A stretch of DNA of 64,000 bases. It comes from a bacterium (lineage in GTDB: Bacteria > UBA8248). The stretch lies in the NCBI GenBank assembly GCA_965213625.1, contig CBDBZU010000004.1, positions 1,824,001 through 1,888,000 on the forward strand, written 5' to 3'. The notes under the pieces were generated by a model. The model was given only the letters and a program-made list of their open reading frames with translations. It searched no databases and was not told the origin of the DNA. Numbering within the stretch: the stretch's first letter is position 1; every line of letters begins with the position of its first letter. The translations under genes were made by a program, and so were the position numbers. Shown here in pieces: positions 43,783 through 57,899 of the stretch.

Positions 43783-44532
43783 ATGTTGATCAAATCTATT
43801 TTACCTATTTTTTTGTCCCTGTCTTTTCTTCTTATCCTTATCCCAAACGCTTCCCTGGCGAAGTATAAAGTCGTATCCATCACAGGCGGCGGGACCATCA
43901 CCGGCAAGGTGAGCTTCAAGGGCAAGCCTCCCGCCCCCGTCAAATACATTATCACCAAGGACTATAACGCCTGCGGTAAGGGCCAGGTAACCCGCCAGGA
44001 GGTGGACGCGAAGGACGGCGCCCTCAGGGGCGTTGTCGTCTATCTCGACAAGGTCAGGAAGGGCAAGGGCTATCCCAAGGAAATCCAGAGCGCTGTGGTG
44101 GACCAGAAAAAGTGCGCCTATGTCCCCTACCTCCAGGTCGTCGCCGAGGGGGGCAAGGTCACCATCCTGAACAGCGACGCCGCCCATCACAACATCCACA
44201 CCTACGAGATCATCGGCCGGTCGAAACGCTCCATGTGGAACATCTCCCAGCCCAAGCAGCGGAAAAAAGTCGTCCGCAGGGCCAAGGTTCGGCGGAGCCC
44301 CATCGTCCGTATCGAGTGCGACGTGCACAACTGGATGAAGGGGTTTCTCTTCGTGGCCAGGAATCCCTATTACGCGCGCGTGAACGATGACGGCAGTTTT
44401 GAGATCAACGACGTTCCTCCGGGGAAATACTCCCTGCGGGCGTGGCACCCGGCCCTGGGGGTCAAGAAGAAAAAGATCGCCATAACCGCCGGGGGGAAGA
44501 AGGCCGCCGCCTTCACGTTTTCTTCGAAATAA
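43783..44532 (+). CDS. secreted protein with cupredoxin-like core and carboxypeptidase-regulatory-like domain
   Basis: Signal peptide; HNIH and CDVHNWM (C-x2-H-x2-M); DGSFEINDVPPGKY..WH. Confidence 0.75.
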   Translation: MLIKSILPIFLSLSFLLILIPNASLAKYKVVSITGGGTITGKVSFKGKPPAPVKYIITKDYNACGKGQVTRQEVDAKDGALRGVVVYLDKVRKGKGYPKEIQSAVVDQKKCAYVPYLQVVAEGGKVTILNSDAAHHNIHTYEIIGRSKRSMWNISQPKQRKKVVRRAKVRRSPIVRIECDVHNWMKGFLFVARNPYYARVNDDGSFEINDVPPGKYSLRAWHPALGVKKKKIAITAGGKKAAAFTFSSK

Positions 44533-44604
44533 GGCCGTATTTCCAGCATATATGGGACGGAAGTCTTACAGGAGATAGAACAGCCAGCTTGGGAGGAGGA
44601 AAGA

Positions 44605-45711
44605 ATGGAATTCGTTCACGCCATCCGGCGCCGGATACTCTGCGGAATCCTGCTGAGCGCCTGGGTTTTTCTCCCGGCGATAGGGTGGGGAGCTTCCCTC
44701 GCACCCCTTCCGGCGCCCAAGGCCCAGAAGCCCGCGCAGACCGAGTTGGGCCGGCATCTCTTCTTCGATCCCCGCATGTCGGGGGACGGGGGGATCAGCT
44801 GCGCCACCTGCCATCAGCCCGCAAAGGGCTGGGGTGACGGCCAGAGCCTCTCGACGGGCTATCCGGGGAGTAAGTATTTCAGAAACGCCCAGACGCTCCT
44901 GAACGCCGCCTACAACAAGCGGGTCTTCTGGGACGGCCGTCTGAGCGGGGCCGACTTGCCCACCCTCGTGCGGGACCACCTGACGGAAGCCCACTTCATG
45001 CTGGTGGACGGACGTCTTTTCCCCGAGCGGCTCAAGCAGGTTCCCGCTTACGTCAAGATGTTCAAGGAGGCCTATGGCGGGGAGCCTTCCTTTGGCGGCG
45101 CGCTCAAGGCCATCTCGGCGTTCCTGCATACCATCGCCTCGCGGAACGCGCCTTTCGATGCGTACCTGAAGGGCGATAAAAAGGCCCTTTCTGCCCAGGC
45201 CAAACAGGGACTCGCCCTGTTCCAGGGGAAGGCCGGTTGCGTCCAGTGCCATAACGGCGCCCTTTTGAGCGACGGCGGATTTCACGCGCTCGGCGTTCCC
45301 GAAAACGAGCAGATTTTCAAGGACCCGATGCGCCACATCACTTTCCGCCGGTTCAACAAGGTGCTCGGCGTCCCGAATTTCATGAACTTGAGAGCCGACG
45401 CGGGCCTCTACGTCGTGACGAAAGAAGAGAGCGACCGCGGCAAGTTCCGCACGCCGACGCTGCGCGAAGTCGCCCGGACGGCGCCCTACATGCACAACGG
45501 CGCTTTCGCCACACTGGAGGACGTCGTCGCCTTCTACAATAAGGGCGGCGGGAGCGGCCCCAACAAGAGCTCGCGGCTCAAGCCCCTGGGACTCTCCGCG
45601 GATGAGAGAAAGGCCCTGGTGGAGTTCATGAAGAGTCTCTCCGGTGCTGCGGTTTCCACGAATGAACCGAAAATTCCCGATTATGAACTCCGCAAACTCG
45701 GCGATAATTGA
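44605..45711 (+). CDS. diheme cytochrome c peroxidase/MauG family protein (IdrP-like)
   Basis: LFFDPRMSGDG, CATCH, FWDGR, CVQCH, FRTPTLR, PYMHNG. Confidence 0.9.
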   Translation: MEFVHAIRRRILCGILLSAWVFLPAIGWGASLAPLPAPKAQKPAQTELGRHLFFDPRMSGDGGISCATCHQPAKGWGDGQSLSTGYPGSKYFRNAQTLLNAAYNKRVFWDGRLSGADLPTLVRDHLTEAHFMLVDGRLFPERLKQVPAYVKMFKEAYGGEPSFGGALKAISAFLHTIASRNAPFDAYLKGDKKALSAQAKQGLALFQGKAGCVQCHNGALLSDGGFHALGVPENEQIFKDPMRHITFRRFNKVLGVPNFMNLRADAGLYVVTKEESDRGKFRTPTLREVARTAPYMHNGAFATLEDVVAFYNKGGGSGPNKSSRLKPLGLSADERKALVEFMKSLSGAAVSTNEPKIPDYELRKLGDN

Positions 45712-45721
45712 GGAGACGGCC

Positions 45722-46861
45722 ATGAACGCGCGAATGAAAAACTGCTTCCTGGGTTCCACGATGGCCGTCTGCTTCATCGCCGCCCTTCTGGTGGGAGGAG
45801 CGGACGCGGCCCGGAAGGGGAAATTCCCTCCGCTGGGGCCATTACCGCCTGTTCCGGTTCCGGCTGACAATCCCATGTCTCCGGCCAAGGTGGAGTTGGG
45901 CAAGCTGCTCTTTTTCGACGCCCGCCTGTCGGGGGACGCCAGCACGTCGTGCGCCTCTTGCCACAGCCCCGAAAACGGCTGGGGAGACGGCGGCGACCTG
46001 AGCCGGGGCTACCCGGGCACGCAGCACTGGCGGAACTCCCAGACGATACTCAATTCTGCCTATTACGCAAAACTGTTCTGGGCAGGCGAGGTTCCGAGTC
46101 TGGAAGCCCAGGCCAAGAGCGCCGCCACGGGCAACGTGGCCGGAAACGGCGACACCATGATGATGGAGGAGCGTCTGCGCCAGGTTCCCGAATACGTCAA
46201 GCGCTTCCGTGAGGTGTTCGGATCCGCCTGGCCGACCATCGACGACGCATGGCGGGCCATCTCGGCCTACGAGCGCACACTGATTTCGAAGGCGGAGGAC
46301 GTGCCGTTCGACCGCTTCATGAAAGGAGACAAGAAGGCGCTCTCGGAAAGCGCTCTGCGCGGGCTGGCTCTTTTCCGCGGAAAGGCGCAGTGCATCCAGT
46401 GCCACAACGGCCCCCTCCTTTCGGATGAGGACTATCACAACATCGGCGTCCCCAAGAACCCCGCGTTCGAGGAAGACCCCTTGCGGCAGATAACGCTTCG
46501 CTTTCAGCACGTGATACGAGGCGTTCCCGAATCCGTGTACCGCAAGGCGGATCGGGATTTGGGCCTCTACTACACCACCAAGCGGGAGGCCGATAAGGGG
46601 AGGTTCCGCACCCCCAGCCTGCGGGAGCTGAATTACACGGCGCCTTTCATGCACAACGGCGCATTTTTCGAGTTGGATGAGGTCATCGATTTTTATGACG
46701 AAGGAGGAGGGGAGGACGCGAACAAGAGTCCACTTCTCAAGAAATTGGGGCTCTCGGACGAGGAGAAGGAAGACCTGCTGGCCTTTCTGGAATCGCTCTC
46801 GAGCGATAAGCCTTTGCTCGTTCAGCCCCCTGAACTGCCGCCGTACGCGGCCATGCCGTAA
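45722..46861 (+). CDS. second diheme cytochrome c peroxidase/MauG family protein (IdrP-like)
   Basis: LFFDARLSGD, CASCH, CIQCH, FRTPSLR, PFMHNG; paralogue of the upstream gene. Confidence 0.9.
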   Translation: MNARMKNCFLGSTMAVCFIAALLVGGADAARKGKFPPLGPLPPVPVPADNPMSPAKVELGKLLFFDARLSGDASTSCASCHSPENGWGDGGDLSRGYPGTQHWRNSQTILNSAYYAKLFWAGEVPSLEAQAKSAATGNVAGNGDTMMMEERLRQVPEYVKRFREVFGSAWPTIDDAWRAISAYERTLISKAEDVPFDRFMKGDKKALSESALRGLALFRGKAQCIQCHNGPLLSDEDYHNIGVPKNPAFEEDPLRQITLRFQHVIRGVPESVYRKADRDLGLYYTTKREADKGRFRTPSLRELNYTAPFMHNGAFFELDEVIDFYDEGGGEDANKSPLLKKLGLSDEEKEDLLAFLESLSSDKPLLVQPPELPPYAAMP

Positions 46862-46871
46862 GGAGGAATCC

Positions 46872-47414
46872 ATGACTCAGGAAGCCAAGGAAACCCGGCC
46901 TTGTATCTCGCGGCGCGCCTTTCTCCTGGCCGGCGGAACCGCCATGAGCGTGGTGCTGGTCGAGGGCATCCCCGGCCTGGCCGGAGCGGCCCTGCAAAGG
47001 GCGGCGTATCCCCGCCGGAAAATCGGCAAGCTCAGCGCCCTCAAAGTCGATACGCCTCAGTATTTCCAGTATCCCTGGAAGGACGTCTTCTCGGGGTGCA
47101 TGCTGGTCAAGCTGGGCGTAACGGCCGGCGGCGGCGTCGGCCCCAAGAGAGACGTCGTGGCGTTCAGTACCCTGTGCACCCACATGGGCGGCCCTCTGCA
47201 GGGGACATACAACGGGCAGTACAAGGCCATCGGCCCGTGCCCGTTCCATCTGACGACCTTCGACCTCATGAAGCACGGCATGGTCGGGGCGGGGCAAGCC
47301 ACGGAAAGCCTCCCCCAGGTCGTACTGGAGACCCGTGGAGACGACATCTACGCGATCGGAATGATGGGGCTGCTATACGGTTATCACTCGAATCTTGCGC
47401 CGGCACAGCGCTGA
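46872..47414 (+). CDS. idrB: Tat-exported Rieske small subunit (IdrB/AioB-like)
   Basis: SRRAFLL Tat motif; CTHMGG and CPFH ligands; GQATESLPQV; AGGAGG RBS. Confidence 0.8.
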   Translation: MTQEAKETRPCISRRAFLLAGGTAMSVVLVEGIPGLAGAALQRAAYPRRKIGKLSALKVDTPQYFQYPWKDVFSGCMLVKLGVTAGGGVGPKRDVVAFSTLCTHMGGPLQGTYNGQYKAIGPCPFHLTTFDLMKHGMVGAGQATESLPQVVLETRGDDIYAIGMMGLLYGYHSNLAPAQR

Positions 47415-47426
47415 GGAGGACGCATC

Positions 47427-50093
47427 ATGGCAGGAAAGGTAACGAACTACTACCTTGCGGAAGACAGTGTCCCCCTCCCCCCGCGAGACGCTGAGGTTTT
47501 CACCACGGCGTGCGACTATTGCATCGTGGGCTGCGGGTACAAGGTCTACCGCTGGCCAATCGGGCGCGAGGGCGGGCCCAAGGCCGGCCAGAACGCCCTG
47601 GGCGTCGATTTTCCCACCGCCATCATGAGCGGCGGCTGGGTCAGCCCGAACATGCACAACATCATCATGGTGAACGGTCGCCCACACCACGTCATCGTCA
47701 TGCCGGACAAGGATGCGAAGGTCGTGAACGTCGGGGGAAACCACTCCATCCGGGGCGGCGTCCTGGCGAAGAAACTCTATAATCCCAACGAACCCTCACA
47801 GGACCGCCTGCGCCAGCCGATGATGCGCGTTCGAGGAACCTTACAGGAGGTCTCGTGGGATACGGCTATGGGCGTCTTGGCGGGCATCTCGAAACACGTC
47901 CTCGACAAGTTCGGCGAGCACGCCTGGGCCATGAAGACGTATTCCTACCAGTATTTCGAAAATACCTATGCCATCTCCAAGCTCGCCTTCCGCGCCATCG
48001 GGACGCCGGCCTACGCCCCGCATGACAAGCCGGGTCCCGGCCCGGACACGCCTGGGATTGATTTTTCCGGCATCAATCCATTCAGCGCCTCCTATGACGA
48101 CTGGGGAGAGGCCGAGGTCATCTTCTTCTCGGGCGTCGACCCGTGGGAGACCAAGTCGGTGCTGTTCACCTCCTGGATCATGGGCGGAAAAACGCCGAAC
48201 AAAAAGCTGGTCTTCGCTCTTCCGCGTAAGACCTCGGGCGTGGCCTACGGCGAGAAGCGCGGCGGTCTCTTCCTGCCCGTCATTCCGGGAACGGATACGG
48301 TCCTCCAATTGGCCATCATCCGCCTGATCCTCGAGAACGGCTGGGAGGACAAGGAGTTTATCGCGAGAAAGGTGTCGAACAAGTGGGAGATCGGCTCCGG
48401 CATGGGACGCGGCACCCGCAACACGCCGTGGCAGTGGGTCACGACCTGGGGCAAGTACGGGACCGACTTCGAGGGCTATAAAAAGTGGATTCTGAGCTAT
48501 CCCTACGCCGAACTGGAGCGAGCCGCGAAGATCACGGGCGTGCCGGCGGCGGACATTCGAAAGACAGCCGAAATCCTGGCCAAGCCCAAGCCCGACGGAA
48601 CGCGCAAGAAAACCTCGTTCATGCTCGAGAAGGGCAATTACTGGTGCAACAGTTTCGGGAACACGGCTTCCTTCGCGGCCCTCGGGCTGGTCTGCGGCGC
48701 CGGGTCGCGGCCCGGTCGCGTGATCTCCCGAGGCGGGGGGCATCAGCGCGGCTGGATGGGCGCGGCCGGTTACCCGAGGAGCCTGTCTCCGGAGAAGGCG
48801 CCGGGACGCCGCAAGAAGGAAATCGATCTCGACCGCTGGGTCGTAGACGGTCACGTCCGCTTCGCATGGGTCATCGGAACCACCTGGTGCCAGGCCATGG
48901 CGGCGTCTCAGGAGTTGATGGACGTTTTCCAGCGATTGACTCGACACAACCCCCACCAGATCGAGAGTTTTGACGTCGATTCGGCGGTGGACGCCTTAAA
49001 GCGGCGCGTGGACGCCGGCGGCATGGTCGTGGCCCACCAGGACATCTACCCGGTTGCTCCCATCGGAACCGAGTATTCGGATCTGATTCTTCCGGCCGCC
49101 ACCTGGGGTGAGGAAGACTTCACCCGGTGCAACGGCGAGCGCCGCCTCAGGCTCTACAGCAAGTTCGCCGACCCCCCCGGAGAGGCCCGGCCCGACTGGT
49201 GGATCATCGCCGCGTTCGCGAGGAAGATGGGCTTCAAGGGCTTCGACTGGAAGGACAGCAACCAGATATTCGAGGAGGCGGCCCGCTTCGGACGCAAAGG
49301 AGTACTCAACTACCATCCGCTCGTCGTGAAGGCCAAGCGCGAGGGGAAACGGGGCCACGAGTTGCTCCGCGAATACGGGACCGGCGGCATCCAGACCCCC
49401 ATTCGCATGGTCAAGGGCAAACTCGTCGGGACGAAGCGTCTCCACGACGAAACCCTCGAACTGGGAACCCCCGAAGGCCCCACCATGCACAGGAAATGGC
49501 TCACCTCCTTCGGGACCCAGAGCGGCAAGGCGGTTTTGCTGAAAAGCTACTGGGAGGATTTCAAGGATTTCTACGATAGGGTCACCCCGCAGGGAGACGA
49601 GTTGTGGGTGACGAACGGCCGCATCAACGAGCTGTGGCAATCCGGCTACGACGACAAGCGGCGACCCTACATCATGCAGCGTTGGCCCCAGCAGTTCTTG
49701 GAGATTCACCCGAAAGACGCCGGCGCCCGGGGCATCGAATCAGGAGACCTGGTGGCCATCGAGAACGACGACCTGCTCGTGCAGACGGGAGGGTACATCG
49801 GCGTCGACGGCAAGGAGCAGACCTTCACCGAGCTCATGAAGGCCGGGCGGATCAAGAAGAGCAAGGGTAGCTTCACCGCCGTGGCTATGGTCACCGACGC
49901 GGTTCGGGAGGGTGTCACCTTCGCCTATTTCGGCTTTCCCGAGAACCCGGCCAACTCGGTGGTTCACCGGGTGCCGGACCCCCTGACCAACCGCTACCGC
50001 TACAAGCTGGGCAAGGGGAAGTTGAAGAAGATTGGAGAATCTCCGCACAAGCATTCGCTGACGAGCCTCAGCTTCGTCCCCCGGACGCTTTAA
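47427..50093 (+). CDS. idrA: molybdopterin oxidoreductase large subunit, AioA-like; putative iodate reductase IdrA
   Basis: VPLPP..CDYCIVGCGY ([3Fe-4S] C-x2-C-x3-C) and HSIRGG; EKGNYW, GGHQRG, NGERRLRLY; lacks the AioA HNRPAYNSE motif; adjacent Rieske and two Ccp genes. Confidence 0.78.
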   Translation: MAGKVTNYYLAEDSVPLPPRDAEVFTTACDYCIVGCGYKVYRWPIGREGGPKAGQNALGVDFPTAIMSGGWVSPNMHNIIMVNGRPHHVIVMPDKDAKVVNVGGNHSIRGGVLAKKLYNPNEPSQDRLRQPMMRVRGTLQEVSWDTAMGVLAGISKHVLDKFGEHAWAMKTYSYQYFENTYAISKLAFRAIGTPAYAPHDKPGPGPDTPGIDFSGINPFSASYDDWGEAEVIFFSGVDPWETKSVLFTSWIMGGKTPNKKLVFALPRKTSGVAYGEKRGGLFLPVIPGTDTVLQLAIIRLILENGWEDKEFIARKVSNKWEIGSGMGRGTRNTPWQWVTTWGKYGTDFEGYKKWILSYPYAELERAAKITGVPAADIRKTAEILAKPKPDGTRKKTSFMLEKGNYWCNSFGNTASFAALGLVCGAGSRPGRVISRGGGHQRGWMGAAGYPRSLSPEKAPGRRKKEIDLDRWVVDGHVRFAWVIGTTWCQAMAASQELMDVFQRLTRHNPHQIESFDVDSAVDALKRRVDAGGMVVAHQDIYPVAPIGTEYSDLILPAATWGEEDFTRCNGERRLRLYSKFADPPGEARPDWWIIAAFARKMGFKGFDWKDSNQIFEEAARFGRKGVLNYHPLVVKAKREGKRGHELLREYGTGGIQTPIRMVKGKLVGTKRLHDETLELGTPEGPTMHRKWLTSFGTQSGKAVLLKSYWEDFKDFYDRVTPQGDELWVTNGRINELWQSGYDDKRRPYIMQRWPQQFLEIHPKDAGARGIESGDLVAIENDDLLVQTGGYIGVDGKEQTFTELMKAGRIKKSKGSFTAVAMVTDAVREGVTFAYFGFPENPANSVVHRVPDPLTNRYRYKLGKGKLKKIGESPHKHSLTSLSFVPRTL

Positions 50094-50136
50094 TGGAGAT
50101 GGAGGTTTATAGGTCGTAGGCCATAAAGGAGGTTGT

Positions 50137-50523
50137 ATGAGAACGTTTCGGTCGAGAAGATTTTTCATCTGTGCAGGCCCGGTGCTCGCAGTGGCGCTCT
50201 TTTCTTGGTCCTCTGGTGACGGGGCCGCCCAGCAAAAAGGCGACGTTGCGGCCGGCAAGGTCAAATACCTGCAGCTTTGCGCCTCCTGCCACGGCGCATC
50301 GGGCAAGGGAGACGGCGTCGCAGCCAAGGCGCTCAGCCCGAAGCCGAGAAATCACACGGACGGCAAATACATGAAGACCATAACGGATGAATATATCGCC
50401 AAGATTACCAAACTGGGCGGGGTCGCGGTAGGGAAATCGCCGTTGATGCCACCCTGGGGCGGTGTTCTTTCGGACGCCGACCTCCAGAATCTGGTCGCAT
50501 TCATGCGCTCGCTGGCGAAATAG
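50137..50523 (+). CDS. periplasmic monoheme cytochrome c
   Basis: Signal peptide, CASCH, KGDG..PKPRN, distal Met in MPPW. Confidence 0.9.
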   Translation: MRTFRSRRFFICAGPVLAVALFSWSSGDGAAQQKGDVAAGKVKYLQLCASCHGASGKGDGVAAKALSPKPRNHTDGKYMKTITDEYIAKITKLGGVAVGKSPLMPPWGGVLSDADLQNLVAFMRSLAK

Positions 50524-50533
50524 GATCGCGTAC

Positions 50534-52585
50534 ATGGACTCAGGGAATCGGGAGGCCCTACCTCCTGTGCGCTCCTTTCGGGTCGAGTTGCCCGGCCACG
50601 ACCACTGGCGGAAAACGATTTGCTGTCAGGATGCGTGTCCTGTACACACGGACGCGCGGGGTTACGTCACGGCCATCTCCGAGGAGGACTTCGAGCGCGC
50701 CTACATCATCGCCCGGGGACCGAACCCCTTCGCGTCGGTTTGCGGGCGCGTCTGTGCGGCGCCATGCGAAGCGGCCTGCCGCCGCGGCAACATCGATTCG
50801 CCGGTGGCCATCCGGGCGCTCAAGCGATTCGTGACGGAGCGCTACGGGGTAGAGGCCGATTTGGCCTCCGGCAAGGGGGAATCCGCCTTCTCGCAGCGCA
50901 GCCTCAGGAGCATGCGGGACCTCCGCTTCCAGCCCTCAACGCGCACCATCAACGATTTCTCGGTGCTCGAAGCGGCCCGCCGCAAGCCCGGGGGGGTGGA
51001 GACGGCGGGGCGAAAGGCCGCCGTCGTCGGTTCGGGCGTGGCGGGGTTGACCTGCGCGCACGATCTTGCCCTGCTCGGCTACGACGTGAGCGTTTTCGAA
51101 AAACAGGAAGTCCCCGGAGGCATGCTCATGCTCGGGGTTCCCGAATACCGCCTTCCGCGCGATCTCGTTCAGGCCGAGATTCAGGCCATCCTCAGCCTGG
51201 GCGTGGAGCTGCGGGTGAACAAGGCCATTGGGCGGGACTTCGACCTCTCCACCCTTCGCAAGGAAGGCTTCGAAGCGGTGTTCATCGCCATCGGCGCGCA
51301 TGTGAGCCGTTCTCTTCCCATGGAAGGCCAGGACGCGGACGGTGTTTTCCGGGCCGTCGAATTTCTGCTGAACGTGAATCTGAACTTCCGCGTCGAGTTG
51401 GGCGAGCGCGTAGTTGTGATCGGCGGGGGAAACGTGGCCATGGACGCCGCTCGGGTCGCCGCCCGGGTGGCCGGTGAGGCGGATTCCGCCGCTAGAACTG
51501 CCGATCAAACGGAAGACGCAGTTCTCATGCGCGAGATGATGGATGTGGCCCGCGAGGCGATGCGCGTGGGAGCGAGGAAAGTCCACGTCATCTGCCTGGA
51601 ATCTCGCGACGAGATGCCTGCTGCGGACTTCGAGATCGAAGAGGCGCTCGAAGAGGGAATCGATCTCGAGCCCCGGGTGGGGCCAGTCCGCATCGTGGAG
51701 AAAGATGGCCGGGTGGTCGGGCTGGAAGTCCACACGTGCACCCGCGTCTTCAATGAGGAGGGCCGCTTCAACCCGGAATTCGAGCCGGATACCAAGCGCG
51801 TGATTCCGTGCGATTCGGTTATCGTGGCCGTCGGCCAGGCTTCGGACCTTTCCTGGATCAAGGATGAGGACGGCGTCGAGACGACGCCGCGCGGGACCAT
51901 TCGCGTCGATCCCGAAACCTTGGCCACGACCGCTCCCGGCATCTACGCGGGCGGAGACGTCGCCATGGGTCCCCGGATATTCATCGAAGGGGTGGAAAAC
52001 GGTCACCGGGCCGCTCGCTCCATACACACCTTTCTGTCAGGCGGTCAGGCGGGCGTCCAGACGCATCTCCAGTGGGCCTCCATCGAACCCTTGCAGCAGG
52101 CACTACTTCAGGAGTCGGGGGAGGGATATCCCCTTCCCATCGTCAATCCCGGATACCAGAAAGTGTCTCGGCGAAACCCGGACGCCCTGCCCATCGAGCG
52201 CAGAATCGGCGTCGCCGAGGTGGAACTGGGTTATTCGCCCGCAGATGCGGTTGGGCAGGGAATGCGGTGTCTGCGCTGCAGCGCGAATCCGATCTTCGAT
52301 GGCGCCAAATGCATCCTCTGCGGCGGTTGTGTGGACGTCTGCCCGTCGCGCTGCCTGCGAATGGTTCCCCTGGAAGCATTACAGGGAGGAGAGGATCTGG
52401 CGGCTCTGGTGCAGGCCCGATTTGGAACGTCCGCCGGGGGCGCCGGAGAGTCGGGGATGGGCGCAGCCATGATCATGGATCCGGACAAGTGCATCCGTTG
52501 TTCGCTCTGCGCCCAGCGCTGTCCCACGGGCGCCGTTACCATCGAGAATTTTTCTTTCCAGGAAGAGTGGGTTGAGCTTGGATGA
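50534..52585 (+). CDS. FAD/NAD(P)-dependent Fe-S oxidoreductase (GltD/NfnL/DsrL-like) with C-terminal ferredoxin domain
   Basis: CQDACP, CGRVCAAPCEAAC, GSGVAGL, GGGNVAMD, RCLRC, CILCGGCVDVCP, CIRCSLCAQRCP; no signal peptide. Confidence 0.88.
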   Translation: MDSGNREALPPVRSFRVELPGHDHWRKTICCQDACPVHTDARGYVTAISEEDFERAYIIARGPNPFASVCGRVCAAPCEAACRRGNIDSPVAIRALKRFVTERYGVEADLASGKGESAFSQRSLRSMRDLRFQPSTRTINDFSVLEAARRKPGGVETAGRKAAVVGSGVAGLTCAHDLALLGYDVSVFEKQEVPGGMLMLGVPEYRLPRDLVQAEIQAILSLGVELRVNKAIGRDFDLSTLRKEGFEAVFIAIGAHVSRSLPMEGQDADGVFRAVEFLLNVNLNFRVELGERVVVIGGGNVAMDAARVAARVAGEADSAARTADQTEDAVLMREMMDVAREAMRVGARKVHVICLESRDEMPAADFEIEEALEEGIDLEPRVGPVRIVEKDGRVVGLEVHTCTRVFNEEGRFNPEFEPDTKRVIPCDSVIVAVGQASDLSWIKDEDGVETTPRGTIRVDPETLATTAPGIYAGGDVAMGPRIFIEGVENGHRAARSIHTFLSGGQAGVQTHLQWASIEPLQQALLQESGEGYPLPIVNPGYQKVSRRNPDALPIERRIGVAEVELGYSPADAVGQGMRCLRCSANPIFDGAKCILCGGCVDVCPSRCLRMVPLEALQGGEDLAALVQARFGTSAGGAGESGMGAAMIMDPDKCIRCSLCAQRCPTGAVTIENFSFQEEWVELG

Positions 52586-53078
52586 CATGACTGCGGGCAT
52601 GGATGAACAGACCCCCCGGCGGCGTATGCTTCTGGGCCTCGGCTGGGTTTCTTTTCTGATTTCCCTGCTGGGCCCGGTTCTCGCCAACGTCCGCTTCTTG
52701 TTCCCCAACGTCGTTTATGAGGGTGAGTCGGTTCTGAAACTCGACGCCCTGGAGAAATACACCGTGGGGTCCATCACGTTTTTCGCCAACAAGAAAATCG
52801 TTTTGTTTCGTGAAAAAGACGGGTTCCGCGCCTGCACGGCCGTCTGTCCTCATCTTCGCTGCGTGATTACCCCCTTTGTCGGGGCGCCGGGCGCGTCTCC
52901 GGATATTTTGAGGGCCCGGTGCCCGTGCCACGGCAGCACTTTCGATGGGCGGGGACAGGTGCTCGGAGGGCCTGCGCCGCGCGGACTCGACTTCTTCCTC
53001 GTGACGAAATCGCCGGATGGCCGCGTCGTCGTCGATACGCGCAAAGTCGTTGCCCCGTCCGAGCATTTCAAGCTCTGA
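52572..53078 (+). CDS. Rieske iron-sulfur subunit of a Rieske/cytochrome b complex
   Basis: RRRMLL plus TM anchor; CPHLRC, CPCHGSTF, GPAPRGL. Confidence 0.9.
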   Translation: MSLDDMTAGMDEQTPRRRMLLGLGWVSFLISLLGPVLANVRFLFPNVVYEGESVLKLDALEKYTVGSITFFANKKIVLFREKDGFRACTAVCPHLRCVITPFVGAPGASPDILRARCPCHGSTFDGRGQVLGGPAPRGLDFFLVTKSPDGRVVVDTRKVVAPSEHFKL

Positions 53079-53087
53079 GCCGTCATC

Positions 53088-54584
53088 ATGGTCACCGAAT
53101 CACCGCAGAAATCAGGCCGCAGTCAAGCCGTATCGTGGCTTAGGGACAACCGCGTCGTCCGTTCGATTTTCCGCCGCGGTTATCCGGACAACGATCTGGA
53201 TCGCGCGGCCGTCATGTTCTCGAATTTCTTCCTGCACGTCCTTCCCGCGCGAACGCACGTTCACAGCCTGAAACCCACCTATACCTGGGGACTCGGCATC
53301 ATCTCCCTGTTCCTCTTCGTGATCCTTCTGGGCACCGGCGCTTTGCTCATGTTCTTCTACGTCCCCTCGACCGAGCGCGCCTACAGCGACATGAAGGATC
53401 TGGAATTCGTCGTCTCCTACGGCGTCGTCCTGCGGAATCTCCATCGCTGGGCCGCTCACGCGATGGTCGCCGTCGTCTTCTTGCACATGTGCCGTGTGTT
53501 CTATACGGCCAGCTACAAGGCGCCCCGCGAGTTCAACTGGGTCATCGGGGTGCTCCTCTGGGGGGCGACCCTGATGATGAGCTTCACGGGCTACCTCCTC
53601 CCCTGGGATCAGCTCGCCTTTTGGGCCATCACCGTCGGGTCGAGCATCGCCAGCTACCCGCCCCTGGTTGGAGAATCCATCCGCACGCTGATGCTCGGGG
53701 GCGATACGGTGGGGCAGAACGCGCTGATCCGGTTCTACGTCATGCACGTCATGCTCCTGCCGGGCATCATGATGATACTCATGGGCGTCCATTTCTGGCG
53801 GATACGCAAAGACGGAGGCCTTTCCCGTCCACCCACGCCGCCCTCTGAGGCAGCCCGGGGCGAGACGGCGGCTTTTTCGCCGCACAAGACGTACATGCTC
53901 GTGGAACTGGCCGAGGGCAAGACGCCCACGGTGGATACGCAGGCCCCGGAAGAAGAGGTTATGAGCTGGCCTCACACGGTGTTCAGGATGCTGGTCGTCT
54001 TCGTGGGAGTCGTGGCCGTTCTCTCCGTTGTCGCCTACTTTTTCGATGCGCCCCTGGAAGAGCTGGCCAACCCGGACCATCCGCCAAATCCCGCCAAGGC
54101 GCCCTGGTACTTTCTCGGACTTCAGGAAATCGTGAGCTATTCCGCTCTGGCGGGAGGCGTCATCGTTCCCGCCGCCGCGATTATCGGCCTCATGAGCATT
54201 CCCTACATCGACCGCAACCCCGAGGGCCAGGGAAACTGGTTCACCTCGGGCCAGGGCCGGCGGATTACGCTCTGGTCGGTCCTGGTGATCATTCCGGTCG
54301 TCCTCGTCCTGACGTATCTGAACGAGCACTACGCGGTGCGGAAACTGGTTCCGGGCGCCTCGCAGATATGGGTCGACCTTTTGAATCCGGGGACTATACT
54401 GATCCTCCTCTTCGCGGTCGGTTCGCTCTACATCTGGCGGCGGACGGGGTCGAGCCGGATGGGGGCCCTGGCCCTCTATTCTTATTTTCTGACGTCTTAT
54501 CTGATTTACACGTTCATCGGGCTTTATTTCCGCGGCGCCAACTGGGCCTGGATATGGCCGTGGCAGGCGGCGGGTCTGCACTGA
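53088..54584 (+). CDS. cytochrome b (unsplit, C-terminally extended) of a Rieske/cyt b complex
   Basis: [30 protein letters not shown], Qo-site motif KAPWYF, PYIDRNP. Confidence 0.92.
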
Positions 54585-54596
54585 GGCGGATGACGG

Positions 54597-55409
54597 ATGG
54601 CGAATTCAAATCACAATGATTCCCATGTGCCGTTCGGGTGGGTGGTCGCCTTCGCCGCCCTGAGCGTGTGCGCGGCCCTGTTTTTTCTGCTCTCCGTCTG
54701 GAAGGACTATGACCGCGAATGGCGGGGCTACCAGCGGACGTTCCGCGAATTGCTCGTCGAAAGGGCCGGAACCGAAGAAGAGCGCAAATCAGTTCTGGCG
54801 AGCGGGGATCAGTTCGAGCAAATCATCGTGGCCAATGGCGAGCGCGTGGACAGGTGCGTCATGTGCCACCGGGGGGTCGAGCACCCGGCGTTCAAGGATG
54901 CCGACCAGCCTTTCGCCAGGCATCCCTCCATTCCGCTGCATCCCTTCGAGCAATTCGGCTGCACCGTGTGCCACCAGGGCCAGGGCAGGGCGACGACCGT
55001 TCAGGACGCCCACGGAGAAGTCCCGTTCTGGGAAGAGCCGCTGCTGCGGGGCGGGTTCATTCAGGCCAGCTGCGGTCCGTGCCACGCAGGCGCCCTGAAA
55101 GATGCCCCTCTCATCCAGAGGGGAAAGCTACTTTATCTGATGAACGGCTGTCTCGCCTGCCACAAAATCAGAGGCGCCGGCGGGGTCATCGGGCCTGACC
55201 TCACGTTTGCGGGCGAACGCCGGAAGGACCCGAAGTGGCACATCGAACACTTCAAGTTTCCGCAAAAGGTTTCTCCCGGCTCCGCCATGCCCGCCTACGG
55301 CCATTTGAAGCCGGAGGATCTCGAAGCGCTGACGGTCTACATGCTGAGCCTCCGCAGGGCGCCTTCCGCCCTGGCGCTGGCTGCTCCCATAACTCCCAAA
55401 AAGAAATAG
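54597..55409 (+). CDS. membrane-anchored tetraheme cytochrome c
   Basis: N-terminal TM; CVMCH, CTVCH, CGPCH, CLACH; GPDL and SAMP motifs. Confidence 0.88.
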   Translation: MANSNHNDSHVPFGWVVAFAALSVCAALFFLLSVWKDYDREWRGYQRTFRELLVERAGTEEERKSVLASGDQFEQIIVANGERVDRCVMCHRGVEHPAFKDADQPFARHPSIPLHPFEQFGCTVCHQGQGRATTVQDAHGEVPFWEEPLLRGGFIQASCGPCHAGALKDAPLIQRGKLLYLMNGCLACHKIRGAGGVIGPDLTFAGERRKDPKWHIEHFKFPQKVSPGSAMPAYGHLKPEDLEALTVYMLSLRRAPSALALAAPITPKKK

Positions 55410-55745: not shown

Positions 55746-56714
55746 ATGAATGATGCACGGGATTTTCATTTCGGCTATCTGCTGCCAACGCGCGGCGTCG
55801 TCGTGGCGGCGGGAGGCGAAGCGCCGGACACCGACCCCATATTTTCTCTCGCGAAAAAGGCCGAGAACCTCGGCCTCGACTCCGTGTGGCTCGGCGACAG
55901 TGTGCTGGCCAAACCGCGCATGGAGAGCTTCACCACCTGGGCGGCGGTTCTCGCCTCGACCGAGCGCGTTCAGGTCGGTACGGCGGTGATGCTTGCGGCG
56001 CTCAGGCATCCGGTCATGCTCGCCCAATCGATGAGCACGCTCGACTGCATGTTCCCCGGGCGCGTCCTTCCCGGTCTGGGCGTGGGGCGAACGGACTTGA
56101 AGTTCGAGTTCGAGACCATTGGCGTGCCGATCAACGAGCGCGCGCGCCGCTTCTCCGAGACGGTGGAGATACTCAAGCTCCTCATGCGCGAATCACAGGC
56201 GAACTATGCGGGCAGGCATTTCTCCTTCGAGGGCGTAGCGCTCGAGCCGAGGCCCAAAACCCCCGGCGGCCCTCCGGTCTGGCTTTCGAGCAATCTGGTG
56301 GAATCAGGCCTGAAGCGCGTAGCGCGCTTCGCCGACGGCTGGATCACGAACTCCATCACGGCGGATCTCTATCGCCAGTGCTGGGAGAAGATACTCGCGT
56401 ATTCCGATGAGTTCGGCAGAACCGAAGAAGTGGAAAAGATTCCCCAGTGCCTCTACGTGACGATGAACATCAATCCCGATGGAGCGAAGGCGGAAGCCCA
56501 GTGCGGTGAATTTCTCTCGAAGTACTACCACAAAACCTTCGATGAGGTGCGCAAGCAACTCCTTGTCCTTGCCGGGGATGGGGACCGCGTGGAGGAAGAT
56601 CTCAGATCGTATGCTGCGGAGGGAGCGCGCGTCTTCGTCGTTCGCTTCGCGGGCGGCGTCCAGGAAGAGCAACTTGAGAATTTCGTCTCCGAACTCTTGC
56701 CGAGGTTCAAGTAG
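55746..56714 (+). CDS. LLM-class flavin/F420-dependent oxidoreductase
   Basis: LLPTR, DSVWLGDSVLAKPR, RVARFADGW. Confidence 0.88.
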   Translation: MNDARDFHFGYLLPTRGVVVAAGGEAPDTDPIFSLAKKAENLGLDSVWLGDSVLAKPRMESFTTWAAVLASTERVQVGTAVMLAALRHPVMLAQSMSTLDCMFPGRVLPGLGVGRTDLKFEFETIGVPINERARRFSETVEILKLLMRESQANYAGRHFSFEGVALEPRPKTPGGPPVWLSSNLVESGLKRVARFADGWITNSITADLYRQCWEKILAYSDEFGRTEEVEKIPQCLYVTMNINPDGAKAEAQCGEFLSKYYHKTFDEVRKQLLVLAGDGDRVEEDLRSYAAEGARVFVVRFAGGVQEEQLENFVSELLPRFK

Positions 56715-57899
56715 ATGGTCCTGGAGAATGGAACGGGAGCCTCCAAAGAAGAGATTAAGGGGAGGATATCGGATGCGCGCGGCCTCATGCGCAAGGGGGG
56801 TCTCGACGTTCTCCTCGTCATCGGGCGCTCTTTTTACGACCGCATGGGGAGCCTGACCTATCTCACGAATCATTTTCCGCCGTTTCCGCCGGGGGCGTTC
56901 AGCGATACGGTTCGCGGCATGGGCCACGGGGTGCTCGTCCTGCCGATTGAGGATGAGCCGCTGCTCTTCGTGGATCACAGGAACTATCGCGCAGAGATGG
57001 TGCACGTCGAAAACGTCCAGGTGGAGGCGAACATCTCCGCGGGCCTGGTGAATCAACTGGGGCGCTTGGGAGCCGGGAGCGCGCGGGTGGGCATCGCCGG
57101 TGAGGACATCATGCCGGCGACGATGTACATCGACCTTACTTCCGCGCTGCCAGAGGCGCACTTCTCGAACGCGAACGCCCTGGTGGAGCAGCTTCGCGCG
57201 AGGAAGAGCGAAACCGAGGTCGCCTACTTGAAGTGTGCGGCGGATATCGTCGAGGCGGGCTACTCCGCTATTTTCGACGCGGTTCGCCCCGGCGTGAGCG
57301 AGAGCGACTTGTGCGCCGAGGGCCACGCGGCGGGGATGCGCGCGGGGGCTGATTTCGTGCGCTACGTCCGCGTTCACAGCGGCCCGTGGGCGAGCTGGGG
57401 TTCGCGCTGGCCGCAGGCGACGCAGAGGAAACTGGAGGCGGGCGATTTGATCCGCTTCGACTACGTGGGCGCGGTGGAGGGCTACGGGTTCGACGTCAAC
57501 CGCACCGCCGTGGTTCCCGGAAAGAAACTGGAGAAAGACGTCGAGGAGATGCTGGAGTTGACCGTCGCGACCTCGGAGGCGGCGATGGGCGCAGTCCGCG
57601 CGGGCGCAAAGGCTTTAGACGTTCATGAGGCGGCGAGTCGGTTCCTGGATGATAACGCGAACGGGGCGGGGCAGCACCTCTTCCCGATGGCGGGGCACGG
57701 CATCGGTCTTGAAACCGTGGAGGCGCCCATCATCAGGCCGGACAACGAGATGATTCTCGAGCGCAATATGGTGCTCTGCGTGGAGCCGCAGTTCGTGCTG
57801 CCCGAGGTGGGGGGTACGAACATCGAGCAGATGGTGCTCGTTGAGGAAGATGGATGCGAACTTCTCACGACGACCACCACGCGCCCTTGGGCGGAGTGA
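56715..57899 (+). CDS. M24 (Xaa-Pro peptidase/creatinase) family protein
   Basis: LRARKSETE, FD..GYGFDVNRT, GHGIGL, VEP, IEQ metal ligands. Confidence 0.88.
   Translation: MVLENGTGASKEEIKGRISDARGLMRKGGLDVLLVIGRSFYDRMGSLTYLTNHFPPFPPGAFSDTVRGMGHGVLVLPIEDEPLLFVDHRNYRAEMVHVENVQVEANISAGLVNQLGRLGAGSARVGIAGEDIMPATMYIDLTSALPEAHFSNANALVEQLRARKSETEVAYLKCAADIVEAGYSAIFDAVRPGVSESDLCAEGHAAGMRAGADFVRYVRVHSGPWASWGSRWPQATQRKLEAGDLIRFDYVGAVEGYGFDVNRTAVVPGKKLEKDVEEMLELTVATSEAAMGAVRAGAKALDVHEAASRFLDDNANGAGQHLFPMAGHGIGLETVEAPIIRPDNEMILERNMVLCVEPQFVLPEVGGTNIEQMVLVEEDGCELLTTTTTRPWAE

Follow-up and report, generated by a model that had tools for sequence, protein, structure and literature searches.

A Flavoprotein-Bearing Rieske/Cytochrome b Operon Clustered with an Iodate-Reductase-Type Cassette: A Candidate Electron-Bifurcating Menaquinol Oxidase

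Introduction

Can a Rieske/cytochrome b complex with a cytoplasmic flavoprotein split the electrons of quinol between a high-potential acceptor and NAD+? Complexes of this kind first came to notice in anammox bacteria. We explored this question in a 64,000-nucleotide stretch of bacterial DNA (the window; GTDB lineage UBA8248, contig CBDBZU010000004.1 of assembly GCA_965213625.1). Because a flavoprotein-bearing complex is clustered here with a putative iodate reductase, the window is a natural test case for the proposed formation of NADH by quinol-electron splitting. Our preferred reading is that four genes encode one membrane complex, which oxidises quinol and bifurcates electrons to NAD+ in an iodate-linked branch; we place it a little short of an even chance.

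Organization of the Gene Cluster

Four tightly packed genes at 50534-55409 (+) encode a flavoprotein, a Rieske protein, a cytochrome b and a tetrahaem cytochrome c. They close a series of ten genes on one strand, 43783-55409 (+), in which a cupredoxin gene, an idrP-P-B-A cassette and a cytochrome c gene precede them:

43783..44532, +, cupredoxin-like protein, periplasmic, 249 aa, with C-terminal CarboxypepD_reg-like domain; first gene of the cluster (Pfam, homologue)
44605..45711, +, di-haem cytochrome c peroxidase, IdrP-type, 368 aa (PF03150 CCP_MauG, E 3e-43)
45644..46861, +, second di-haem cytochrome c peroxidase, IdrP-type (PF03150, E 7.7e-44)
46872..47414, +, small Rieske subunit, AioB/IdrB type, 180 aa from an internal ATG (TIGR02694; Pfam Rieske)
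47427..50093, +, molybdopterin catalytic subunit, AioA/IdrA type, 888 aa (TIGR02693; Rieske_3, Molybdopterin, Molydop_binding)
50137..50523, +, monohaem class I cytochrome c with signal peptide, 128 aa (PF13442, PF00034)
50534..52585, +, cytoplasmic iron-sulfur flavoprotein P0001, 683 aa (Pfam Fer4_20, Pyr_redox_2, C-terminal Fer4_7)
52572..53078, +, Rieske [2Fe-2S] subunit with TAT motif and one membrane helix (Pfam Rieske)
53088..54584, +, cytochrome b, fused, 498 aa (Pfam Cytochrome_B, Cytochrom_B_C)
54597..55409, +, tetrahaem cytochrome c, membrane-anchored, 270 aa (four CxxCH, domain matches)

The flavoprotein gene ends with TGA at 52583-52585, and the Rieske frame starts at TTG 52572 (14-nt overlap) or at ATG 52587 (1-nt gap). 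Thus, depending on the start codon, the two genes overlap or abut, as the sequence-only reading had stated. The Rieske and cytochrome b genes are separated by 9 nt, and the cytochrome b and cytochrome c genes by 12 nt. The second peroxidase is 48% identical to the first; its listed GTG start overlaps the previous gene, and the start codon is uncertain.

The Flavoprotein and Its Nucleotide Site

The flavoprotein is composed of an NfnB/GltD-type FeS domain, FAD and NAD(H) domains, an insert of 30-60 aa within the NAD domain, a conserved linker and a C-terminal 2x[4Fe-4S] ferredoxin. It had been described from the sequence as GltD/NfnL-like with an extra C-terminal ferredoxin domain, and this description agrees with the Pfam matches and with the NfnA, NfnB and StnC folds. 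The best solved fold matches of its AF2 model (mean pLDDT 82.9) were the NfnA chains of NfnABC (9bov, 9n5u), StnC (8oh5) and NfnB. In the alignment of relatives, each of two domains has invariant cysteines that would accommodate a pair of FeS clusters, and the protein is predicted to bind FAD and four [4Fe-4S] clusters and to have an NAD(H) site. The domain layout presumably resembles that of DsrL; a Pfam/ORF survey of the cluster detected no dsr genes.

Residues 354-358 of the flavoprotein are CLESR, which aligns with YRRT or YRRS in 5/5 of the best PDB homologues listed. L355 and E356 replace both arginines of the NADPH-type YRR motif, and E356 is invariant in 59/59 relatives; the substitution that the earlier reading had pointed out is a family trait. 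The Leu-Glu site probably favors NADH over NADPH. With an acidic side chain facing the ribose of NAD, the site would suit NADH, the usual catabolic donor, equally with NAD+ reduction. The same invariant site is also in line with a flavoprotein that serves as electron entry, in which NADH would pass electrons through FAD and the FeS chain to the b haems. Menaquinone would then be reduced at a Qi-type site, or the complex would be fed directly, and the operon would be a compact NADH-to-iodate chain. The FAD/FeS chain of Nfn enzymes is reversible, and the fold match between the flavoprotein and these solved relatives also fits NADH entry.

A stand-alone GltD, NfnB or PreT enzyme was considered and rejected. 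The flavoprotein scored below every NCBIfam cut-off (GOGAT_sm_gam, 177 vs. 448 bits; gltA, 279.5 vs. 471.8 bits; PRK12771, 433 vs. 516 bits), YRR is replaced by CLE, and the linkage to cytochrome b is conserved. It is a single-copy protein, and the genome's own GltD-like paralogue (25% identity) is placed apart from it in the tree. The grouping with stand-alone GltD/PreT that was named beforehand as a refutation was thus not seen.

Conservation of the Complex and Attachment of the Flavoprotein

The flavoprotein family has hundreds of metagenome relatives. The order flavoprotein, Rieske, cytochrome b, multihaem c was found in 15/15 genome loci, and cytochrome b was present in 46/46 metagenome loci whose downstream flank reached 1500 nt or more (44 downstream on the same strand, 2 upstream). 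The flavoproteins from these loci are 40-60% identical to that of the window, and the recurrence of the gene order is beyond chance. The proposed linkage between flavoprotein and cytochrome b is thus conserved wherever the flank was long enough.

Complex prediction for flavoprotein and cytochrome b gave weak support for binding (ipSAE 0.44, median of 3 runs; best control 0.00), with at least 37% of contacts agreeing between runs and a partner pLDDT of at least 64. The interface mark was reached by 116/157 solved complexes and 2/215 mismatches, and at or below 0.60 by only 18/157 solved complexes and both mismatches. This weak support and the segment scan, which showed no hydrophobic or membrane segment in the flavoprotein, would fit a soluble, co-transcribed protein that is no subunit, for instance a redox sensor under shared regulation or an enzyme of the NAD(P)H:ferredoxin type. 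However, the gene order is kept in all 46 loci across relatives of only 40-60% identity, the genes abut or overlap, the controls of the fold test scored 0.00, and all subunits of the Kuenenia homologue co-migrated according to the discussion in PMC12954380. We consider a separate soluble protein highly improbable, and the flavoprotein is probably attached physically to the cytochrome b dimer.

In the tree, the clade of the window falls together with sequences from its own phylum and from Methylomirabilis (SH-aLRT 99). Locus L063, which is anammox-like, is found elsewhere on a long branch; its Rieske domain matches Kustd1480 (E 8e-66), and its flavoprotein is 40% identical to P0001 over the full length and has the same CLESR. 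The label "anammox-style" in the sequence-only reading proved too narrow, given the hundreds of relatives, the clade shared with Methylomirabilis, the missing CxGG, the fused cytochrome b and the four c haems. Judged from these sequences, the family is much wider than anammox. The complex is an accessory trait: the flavoprotein is missing in 8/22 other genomes of the same genus, some of them 99-100% complete, and we counted this against the bifurcation reading. We also counted against it that the flavoprotein/cytochrome b family is without any characterised member.

Rieske, Cytochrome b and Tetrahaem Cytochrome c Subunits

The Rieske protein has one helix and an RRR TAT motif, and its cluster boxes read CPHLRC and CPCHGSTF. 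In the PDB search, its nearest solved relatives were 9rk4 (Kuste4569, E 1e-14) and 9rk3 (Kustd1480, E 1.6e-9). The CPCHGS-x-F box matches that of Kustd1480, and family Rieske proteins keep the Ser in 64/65 and the Phe in 64/65. The Rieske potential of Kustd1480 was measured at +335 mV (PMC12954380), and by analogy that of the window complex may be high.

In cytochrome b, a four-helix part resembling b6 is fused to one resembling subunit IV, which has additional helices at the C terminus. The top match in the PDB was cytochrome b6 (E 8e-42). Among NCBIfam models, ExtP reached 266 bits, short of its cut-off of 290, and there was a match to ExtQ as well. At the Qo site the motif reads APWY, a PEWY-type variant ([11 protein letters not shown]). 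H50, H119, H133, H220 and H235 are invariant in 35/35 rows, and H119/H133 and H220/H235 are the two His pairs for haems bL and bH. The position of H50 matches His43/His62 of the haem proposed for Kuenenia, and His50 of both monomers would perhaps hold a fifth haem. However, a second Rieske/b6 complex in the genome, which is without a flavoprotein gene, also has His50 and the N-terminal motif, so neither is specific to flavoprotein-bearing complexes.

Haem cN is the quinone-reducing haem of b6-type complexes. Its motif CxGG is absent from the window cytochrome b and occurs in only 2/35 rows (L063, L097). Because the attachment cysteine is missing in the other 33/35 rows, a working Qi site is doubtful, which argues against entry of electrons from NADH.

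The sequence-only reading had placed a tetrahaem c in the position of cytochrome c1, and four CxxCH motifs (CVMCH, CTVCH, CGPCH, CLACH) were indeed found at 54597-55409. Three of the protein's haems are c7/c3-like and the fourth belongs to a class I (FixO-like) domain; there is one N-terminal hydrophobic segment. In other lineages the homologues measure 451-751 aa, and the four that we scanned (451-712 aa) have further class I cytochrome c domains.

The Iodate-Reductase-Type Cassette

The small Rieske subunit scored 120.1 bits with TIGR02694 (cut-off 95.65), and the Mo catalytic subunit scored 457.5 bits with TIGR02693 (cut-off 359). Both models are NCBI arsenite-oxidase equivalogs, in line with a reading in which the complex would run in reverse as a confurcating enzyme: one electron from a high-potential periplasmic donor, via the c haems and the Rieske cluster, and one from NADH, via the flavoprotein and the b haems, would meet at Qo and reduce menaquinone. 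The Mo enzyme would then work as an arsenite-oxidase-type oxidase. The APWY Qo motif fits this as well, and Kao and Hunte argue that APWY complexes run in reverse (PMC4122944), a proposal that we also counted against bifurcation.

However, the order idrP2,P1,B,A with two peroxidase genes is the mark of iodate reductases and, in the published account, is missing beside aioA (PMC8692401). The window has two peroxidase genes upstream and the published order, and the Mo subunit is read, by synteny, as a putative iodate reductase IdrA. It is 58-78% identical to IdrA-type genes found in 17/251 Methylomirabilota genomes; these closest genes have the same cassette. Of the 17 loci fetched, 13 had sufficient flank, and in these idrP-P-B adjoins idrA in the order of the window. 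Moreover, most members of the flavoprotein family have no donor enzyme nearby. Confurcation with an arsenite-oxidase-type enzyme is thus improbable in our view. The earlier suggestion of iodate or H2O2 as acceptors gains from the iodate-reductase-type cassette and the two cytochrome c peroxidases directly upstream; the Eh of IO3-/I- is given as 0.72 V.

The link between idr and the flavoprotein complex is lineage-specific, and this was also counted against the bifurcation reading. IdrA was found in none of 80 metagenome loci of the flavoprotein family, and no flavoprotein, Rieske protein or cytochrome b was found within the fetched flanks, several of them short, of the 17 Methylomirabilota idr loci. 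Among the phylum's 51 genomes, 17 are IdrA-positive and all 17 carry the flavoprotein. The adjacency of the window is seen in 14 of them; G036 has the modules in another order on one contig, and two have them on separate contigs.

For the cupredoxin, Pfam sees only the C-terminal domain, and the L074 homologue passes Copper-bind PF00127 (29.5 bits, cut-off 21.2). H136, C179, H182 and M185 are invariant in 21/21 rows. In 28/61 metagenome loci with at least 800 nt upstream, a homologue is the gene immediately before the flavoprotein, and one heads the idr cassettes of G036, G048 and some Methylomirabilota loci. The monohaem cytochrome c has one CASCH motif and is kept directly upstream of the flavoprotein in G048 and in the idr-less G050 and G040. 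It probably shuttles electrons from the complex to IdrAB/IdrP.

Direction of Electron Flow

Because the complex is co-encoded with a cupredoxin, IdrAB, two peroxidases and a monohaem cytochrome c, the cluster would form a complete menaquinol-to-iodate respiratory branch. MqnA/D-type matches in the genome point to menaquinone as the quinone. In the bifurcation reading, an APWY-Qo ("clade G") type Rieske/cytochrome b quinol oxidase would carry the flavoprotein on the cytoplasmic face of the cytochrome b dimer. Menaquinol would be oxidised at Qo, with the quinol protons released outside. The first electron would run downhill from the Rieske cluster through the tetrahaem c and cytochrome c (or the cupredoxin) to IdrAB and IdrP, where iodate and the by-product H2O2 would be reduced. 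The second, low-potential electron would pass through haems bL and bH, and perhaps the fifth haem, to the four FeS clusters and FAD, and two such electrons would turn NAD+ into NADH.

The genome has complex I (two NuoD loci), and at a completeness of 96.6% we found no match to RuBisCO; a dedicated NADH-making device is thus not obviously needed. The missing RuBisCO match suits NADH entry, and the sequence-only reading had itself listed direct feeding by NADH. However, such an entry would be redundant with complex I. In addition, a Ser-bearing Rieske box, as in the +335 mV protein, together with menaquinone would imply very low-potential b haems, which better fit NAD+ reduction. We regard NADH entry as a serious alternative, though less likely; bifurcation to NAD+ is plausible, and flow from quinol to NAD+ is the direction that we favor.

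It is doubtful, though conceivable, that the ten-gene cluster is a self-contained menaquinol:iodate unit in which the strongly exergonic reduction of iodate and H2O2 pulls bifurcation at Qo and sends the second electron to NAD+. If so, the cell would obtain NADH from quinol with neither reverse complex I nor any cost in proton-motive force, and the cluster would be the first example beyond anammox whose high-potential partner can be identified. Since the flavoprotein-Rieske-cytochrome b core is common to hundreds of relatives from soil, freshwater and marine settings, quinone-based bifurcation to NAD+ would then be widespread and overlooked.

Comparison with Known Systems

The flavoprotein shares the folds of the FeS, FAD and NAD(P) domains with NfnB, NfnA of NfnABC, StnC and GltD (4ylf, 5jca, 9bov, 9n5u, 8oh5, 6s6s), and the cluster motifs CGRVC...C...CE..C are common to all of them. 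In contrast to these enzymes, it has Leu-Glu for the Arg pair of YRR, the NAD-domain insert and the extra C-terminal ferredoxin domain, and its relatives are always encoded beside cytochrome b. Compared with GltD, the first ~50 residues of the FeS domain seem to have moved behind the flavin domains (weak matches).

The cassette resembles idrABP1P2 (Yamazaki 2020 as cited; PMC8692401; Ca. Methylomirabilis iodofontis, PMC10989891) in the P-P-B-A order, the TAT-type small Rieske subunit and the AioA-like Mo subunit. The model described there, in which electrons pass from a bc-type complex through cytochrome c to IdrAB, may apply here too. However, the window cassette is joined to a dedicated flavoprotein-bearing Rieske/cytochrome b operon and has a cupredoxin gene ahead. 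The new feature is that the flavoprotein-bearing complex follows cupredoxin, idrP-P-B-A and cytochrome c in one cluster.

Kuenenia stuttgartiensis has two comparable complexes, Kuste4569-4574 and Kustd1480-1485 (Kartal et al. 2013 as cited; Hauser et al. 2025, PMC12954380). The statement taken over from the earlier reading, that an NAD(P)H oxidoreductase and a multihaem c are proposed there to couple quinol oxidation to NAD(P)+ reduction, is as published. As described, in both systems the operon encodes a cytoplasmic flavoprotein of the NAD(P) type with FAD and four FeS clusters (predicted for the window), together with a cytochrome b resembling b6 and a multihaem c that replaces c1/f; a conserved N-terminal His lies where an extra haem b was modelled. 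Both also have a terminal reductase in the same cluster, HAO-like in one of the Kuenenia cases and putatively Idr in the window; the cluster has no HAO-like gene, and the idr cassette occupies that place. However, in Kuenenia the cytochrome is split into subunit IV and a four-helix b6 that carries haem cN (CxGG), whereas the window has a single protein, and the c haems number six or eight in Kuenenia and four here. The window gene order, unlike that of Kuenenia, begins with the flavoprotein; the organism is not an anammox bacterium, and its clade is not the nearest branch to L063.

Dibrova et al. (2013/2017, PMC5600118) described "clade G" of cytochrome b, which is accompanied by a large FeS oxidoreductase that binds NAD(P), and Kao and Hunte (2014, PMC4122944) named the "APWY clade". 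Both accounts share with the window the APWY Qo motif and the occurrence, beyond anammox, of cytochrome b together with a cysteine-rich oxidoreductase that binds NAD(P). The distribution they report is patchy over many phyla, with a Methylomirabilis member named, and the two papers offer no biochemistry and, in the text consulted, no link to iodate reductase. We liken the window cytochrome b to this clade by motif and gene company; so defined, the complex would belong to an already published, uncharacterised family (clade G/APWY clade).

Gene Cluster and Products

Ten closely spaced or slightly overlapping genes occupy 43783-55409 on the plus strand of the window:

gene 1, plus strand: secreted protein of 249 aa, predicted cupredoxin
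genes 2 and 3, plus strand: two di-haem cytochrome c peroxidases
gene 4, plus strand: small Rieske subunit of the AioB/IdrB type (domain and family matches)
gene 5, plus strand: molybdopterin subunit of the AioA/IdrA type (domain and family matches)
gene 6, plus strand: monohaem cytochrome c
gene 7, 50534-52585, plus strand: flavoprotein of 683 aa (domain matches)
gene 8, 52572 or 52587 to 53078, plus strand: Rieske protein
gene 9, 53088-54584, plus strand: cytochrome b of 498 aa
gene 10, 54597-55409, plus strand: cytochrome c of 270 aa with four CxxCH motifs and one N-terminal helix

The cluster is real and was described correctly by the sequence-only reading: the flavoprotein gene, which ends at 52585, overlaps or abuts the Rieske gene depending on the start taken for the latter, and the product of gene 10 is the tetrahaem c that had been recognised in the complex.

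A scan for promoters and terminators did not outdo shuffled sequences, which averaged 2.8 promoter-like and 13.4 terminator-like sites where the real sequence had 3 and 18. RNA-library contigs of relatives about 90% identical, from three libraries of two studies, covered the cluster and bridged the junctions from idrA to the tetrahaem c gene; they joined idrA, cytochrome c and flavoprotein (X21 record 20), flavoprotein, Rieske and cytochrome b (record 22), and cytochrome b and cytochrome c (record 23). These contigs are a hint only, and the tool warns that they show neither transcription nor a single transcript.

On the 3' side (55746-57899) lie a luciferase-like monooxygenase gene and an M24 peptidase/creatinase-type gene, and a second luciferase-like gene (38% identical) is found at the window's end (about 63300). 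Among 15 relative loci, none had the luciferase-like gene, and the M24 gene had only a weak match, in locus L012.

The first gene product is assigned as a cupredoxin. Its homologue in the soil metagenome locus L074 passes the Pfam Copper-bind model, and the His, Cys, His and Met of the type 1 copper site are invariant in all 21 cupredoxin rows. A homologue lies directly 5' of the flavoprotein gene in 28 of the 61 metagenome loci with enough upstream flank (among the best 80 of at least 591), and homologues also adjoin idr cassettes elsewhere. Two paralogues of this cupredoxin, each 36% identical to it, occur in the window's own genome, G000, about 185 kb from each other at C4:1714-2445 and C4:186471-187202; their exactly equal tblastn figures suggest that the stretch is repeated or was duplicated in assembly.

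The Flavoprotein and Its Nucleotide Site

The domain search found the FeS, FAD and NAD(P) domains of NfnB/GltD in the flavoprotein, and a dicluster ferredoxin domain added at the C-terminus. The folds closest to its AF2 model (mean pLDDT 82.9, pTM 0.84) were those of NfnA of NfnABC complexes, StnC and NfnB, which agrees with the earlier description of a GltD/NfnL-like protein with an extra ferredoxin domain. The flavoprotein scored below all NCBIfam cut-offs. It has one copy in the genome, and its nearest paralogue is a GltD-like protein with 25% identity.

Residues of about 540-604 (window 52150-52350), ahead of the C-terminal ferredoxin domain, contain the pattern LPIERRIG-AEVELGY...RCLRC and resemble the first ~50 residues of NfnB/GltD-type proteins, in matches that are weak (i-Evalue 1.3 for T. 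maritima NfnB, E 0.013 for the GltD-like paralogue). This stretch is absent from the flavoprotein's own N-terminus; thus, the FeS domain looks circularly permuted.

In these enzymes the arginine pair of the YRR motif holds the 2'-phosphate of NADPH. The HMMER alignments placed C354-L355-E356-S357-R358 on Y-R-R-T/S-R/K in all five best solved homologues, as had been noticed from the sequence, and E356 is invariant in the 59 aligned relatives. The flavoprotein of the anammox-like metagenome locus L063, which stands outside the 59-row alignment, has CLESR too. From the Leu-Glu pair we infer that NADH would be the nucleotide.

Linkage to Cytochrome b

The order flavoprotein, Rieske, cytochrome b, multihaem c was kept in all 15 genome-contig loci, comprising 13 close relatives, one Methylomirabilis (60% identity) and one further bacterium (50%). 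Scanning metagenomes with an aligned set of diverse relatives gave at least 598 stretches, at least 591 of them encoding a flavoprotein relative, and the best 80 were taken. Among these best 80 of at least 591, cytochrome b was present in all 46 loci with at least 1500 nt downstream (44 downstream on the same strand, 2 upstream), and multihaem c in 29 of the 34 with 4 kb or more downstream. The GltD-like paralogue was set apart, on a very long branch, from the 64 cytochrome-b-linked proteins in a 65-sequence tree. The flavoprotein neither groups with this GltD-like paralogue nor lacks a linkage to cytochrome b, two of the three findings on which the sequence-only reading would have been given up; the linkage, the scores below NCBIfam cut-offs and the tree speak against a stand-alone GltD. 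The flavoprotein is a subunit-like partner of cytochrome b. It is very improbable that it is merely co-transcribed and acts as a soluble enzyme, which fits the conserved gene order poorly.

Two copies of cytochrome b (residues 1-405) were folded with flavoprotein residues 505-683. The scores were 0.55, 0.44 and 0.40, against 0.00 in all three controls, and the tool's grade was "weak support". No terminal oxidase or reductase emerged as conserved when the neighbourhoods of the 31 longer loci were clustered.

Several variants were seen in the family. Soil metagenome relatives encode a protein of ~470-500 aa 5' of the cupredoxin-flavoprotein-Rieske-cytochrome b operon (L074:2897-4315; 16 of the 31 longer loci); this protein has one CxxCH, near its N-terminus (RKY-TSC-TCH), matches no Pfam family and is missing from the window's cluster. 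The multihaem c of other lineages has 451-751 aa; in the window clade it is shortest (267-272 aa), and the monohaem c has a gene of its own. Four scanned proteins of 451-712 aa (L074:8900-11038, L015:10792-12783, L014:11224-12579 and L023:8692-10083) carry N-terminal c7-like haems as in the window and further class I cytochrome c domains. In several relatives (L012:9526-11037, L015, L017, L021, L040), in-frame stops divide cytochrome b into b6 and subunit IV; the window clade, Methylomirabilis-like loci and a group of 422-428-aa forms lacking ~70 residues near the C-terminus have it fused. These mixed forms indicate that fusion and fission occurred more than once in the family.

In outline, the family is already in print. 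Kao and Hunte (2014, PMC4122944) describe an "APWY clade" of cytochrome b over several phyla, state that no member has been characterised, and suggest reverse operation; Dibrova et al. (PMC5600118) describe a cytochrome b "clade G" that goes with a large NAD(P)-binding FeS oxidoreductase, and name a Methylomirabilis oxyfera protein as a member. The Qo motif of the window's cytochrome b is APWY. The complex is a member of a known, biochemically unexplored kind of Rieske/cytochrome b complex.

The Iodate Reductase Cassette

Reyes-Umana et al. (2021, PMC8692401) separate iodate reductases from arsenite oxidases by the order idrP2, P1, B, A with two peroxidase genes. The cassette upstream of the complex has this order and both peroxidase genes. 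Its Mo enzyme also passed the NCBI arsenite-oxidase models, so the iodate reductase call rests on synteny. A confurcating reverse mode of the complex would require the Mo enzyme to be an oxidase; the peroxidase genes speak against this, and we consider it quite improbable.

Among the 51 genomes of the phylum, the flavoprotein was found in 20 and IdrA in 17, and all 17 IdrA carriers have the flavoprotein. The two are adjacent as in the window in 14 of the 17; G036 has both modules in another order on one contig, and G015 and G048 have them on different contigs. In G040, G050 and the partial genome G022, the flavoprotein was found without IdrA. G040 is a genome of the same family; in its locus (L102, on C237; positions 10896-15853 of L102, minus strand), genes for an Rrf2-type regulator, the alpha subunit of an NAD-type formate dehydrogenase (TIGR01591, 811 bits) and a NuoF-like protein lie upstream of the module of cytochrome c, flavoprotein, Rieske, cytochrome b and cytochrome c. 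Because 8 of the 22 other genomes of the same genus, some of them 99-100% complete, lack the flavoprotein, the module is accessory.

Neither IdrA nor IdrP was found near the flavoprotein in the 80 metagenome loci (the best 80 of at least 591). IdrA occurs in 17 of 251 Methylomirabilota genomes, with 58-78% identity to that of the window, and in 13 of these 17 loci, those with enough flank, two peroxidase genes and IdrB stand beside idrA in the same order; L120 has one peroxidase gene only, at a contig end. The complex was near none of the 17 within the fetched flanks, a weak absence as several contigs end close to idrA. The tie between idr and the complex is specific to the window's lineage and is not in print within the searches made. 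No paper was found that joins idr with Nitrospinota, or iodate and idrA with such sponge symbionts; neither iodate nor arsenite appears in a comparative Nitrospinota paper, and a 2026 paper on iodate reducers is silent on Rieske, cytochrome b and Nitrospin-. The new element is the neighbourhood that joins the complex to the idr cassette.

Genome Context and Proposed Electron Transfer

The genome has a second Rieske/b6/subunit IV cluster outside the window (L097, G000:C4:2680256-2683840), with the CxGG motif and without a flavoprotein. It encodes a Rieske protein of 196 aa, a b6 of 262 aa (TWCMGG) and a subunit IV of 259 aa (APWY), and neither a flavoprotein nor a cytochrome c gene adjoins it. 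With the window's cytochrome b, this b6 shares 49% identity and the N-terminal motifs WRS-FR-G and LH-xP. On the opposite strand, at a distance of about 8 kb, is a tetrahaem c paralogue (33% identical). His50 was rejected as a mark of flavoprotein-bearing complexes, since it is also present in this complex. The genome has two NuoD loci and one haem-copper oxidase, and MqnA/D-type matches point to probable menaquinone synthesis by the futalosine route. RuBisCO had no match in the genome (96.6% completeness).

Our best reading, to which we give somewhat less than even confidence, applies to this locus the Kartal/Hauser scheme, in which the electrons of quinol bifurcate to an acceptor and NAD+. 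Menaquinol would be oxidised at the Qo site. The first electron would pass through the Rieske cluster and tetrahaem c to a cytochrome c or the cupredoxin, and then to IdrAB and the peroxidases; the potential of IO3-/I- is given as 0.72 V. The second would reach FAD and NAD+ by way of the b haems and the four FeS clusters. The hypothesis of electron bifurcation is favoured by a high-potential-type Rieske box in a menaquinone organism, by the loss of the haem cN cysteine, which makes the flavoprotein a plausible outlet of the b chain, and by the gene-level tie to a very oxidising acceptor. Against it count the presence of complex I, the lack of evident autotrophy and the occurrence of the N-terminal His50 in the complex without flavoprotein. 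Glu356 is also equally suited to NADH as donor, and the main rival, to which we give a somewhat lower confidence than to bifurcation, is that NADH enters through the flavoprotein.

To our knowledge, the role of an NAD(P)-type flavoprotein on a Rieske/cytochrome b complex has been a question since the Kuenenia genome and has been treated almost solely for anammox bacteria, which are hard to work with. The flavoprotein module forms a large family well beyond them, with a fixed NADH-type signature (Leu-Glu for Arg-Arg) and a Rieske box like that of Kustd1480, a Kuenenia Rieske protein. In one lineage its genes are joined to those of a defined acceptor system of high potential, made up of iodate reductase, peroxidases, cytochrome c and cupredoxin. 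The locus gives a concrete assay, with quinol and iodate as inputs and NAD+ reduction as read-out, and candidates that could be expressed heterologously or studied in carriers already in culture, for example Methylomirabilis. Should NADH oxidation be all that the complex does, the locus would still be a compact NADH-to-iodate chain, relevant to iodine cycling in sponge-associated and marine bacteria.

Comparison with Anammox Complexes

Hauser et al. (2025, PMC12954380) describe two Kuenenia Rieske/cytochrome b complexes whose operons also encode an NAD(P) oxidoreductase; this subunit was modelled with FAD and four FeS clusters. In these complexes b6 is split and carries haem cN, subunit IV has five helices and the c subunit is hexa- or octahaem, and an extra haem b is predicted between His43 (or His62) of two b6 monomers. 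The best solved relatives of the window's Rieske protein are those of Kuenenia (9rk4, E 1e-14; 9rk3, E 1.6e-9). Its box, CPCHGSTF, has Ser and lacks Tyr as in Kustd1480, which was measured at +335 mV; in the family, Ser and Phe are each present in 64 of 65 boxes, 13 of the 65 being near-copies of the window's protein. The Rieske domain of L063 matches all 117 residues of Kustd1480 (E 8e-66), so this locus stands in for an anammox locus, and its flavoprotein shares 40% identity with that of the window along the whole protein.

The "anammox-style" label is too narrow for the complex. The window's cytochrome b is fused to a subunit-IV-like part, whereas the Kuenenia b6 is split, and it lacks the haem cN motif CxGG, which only 2 of 35 cytochrome b rows have (L063 and the genome's own second complex). 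Its c subunit has four haems instead of six or eight. In the 65-sequence tree, the window clade groups with the same-phylum genus g9 and Methylomirabilis (SH-aLRT 99); L063 falls elsewhere, on a long branch that makes its exact position unsure. This placement argues against a specific anammox origin. Taken together, the likenesses, the differences and the tree show that the complex is related to those of anammox bacteria as one member of a far larger family, and was not imported from them.
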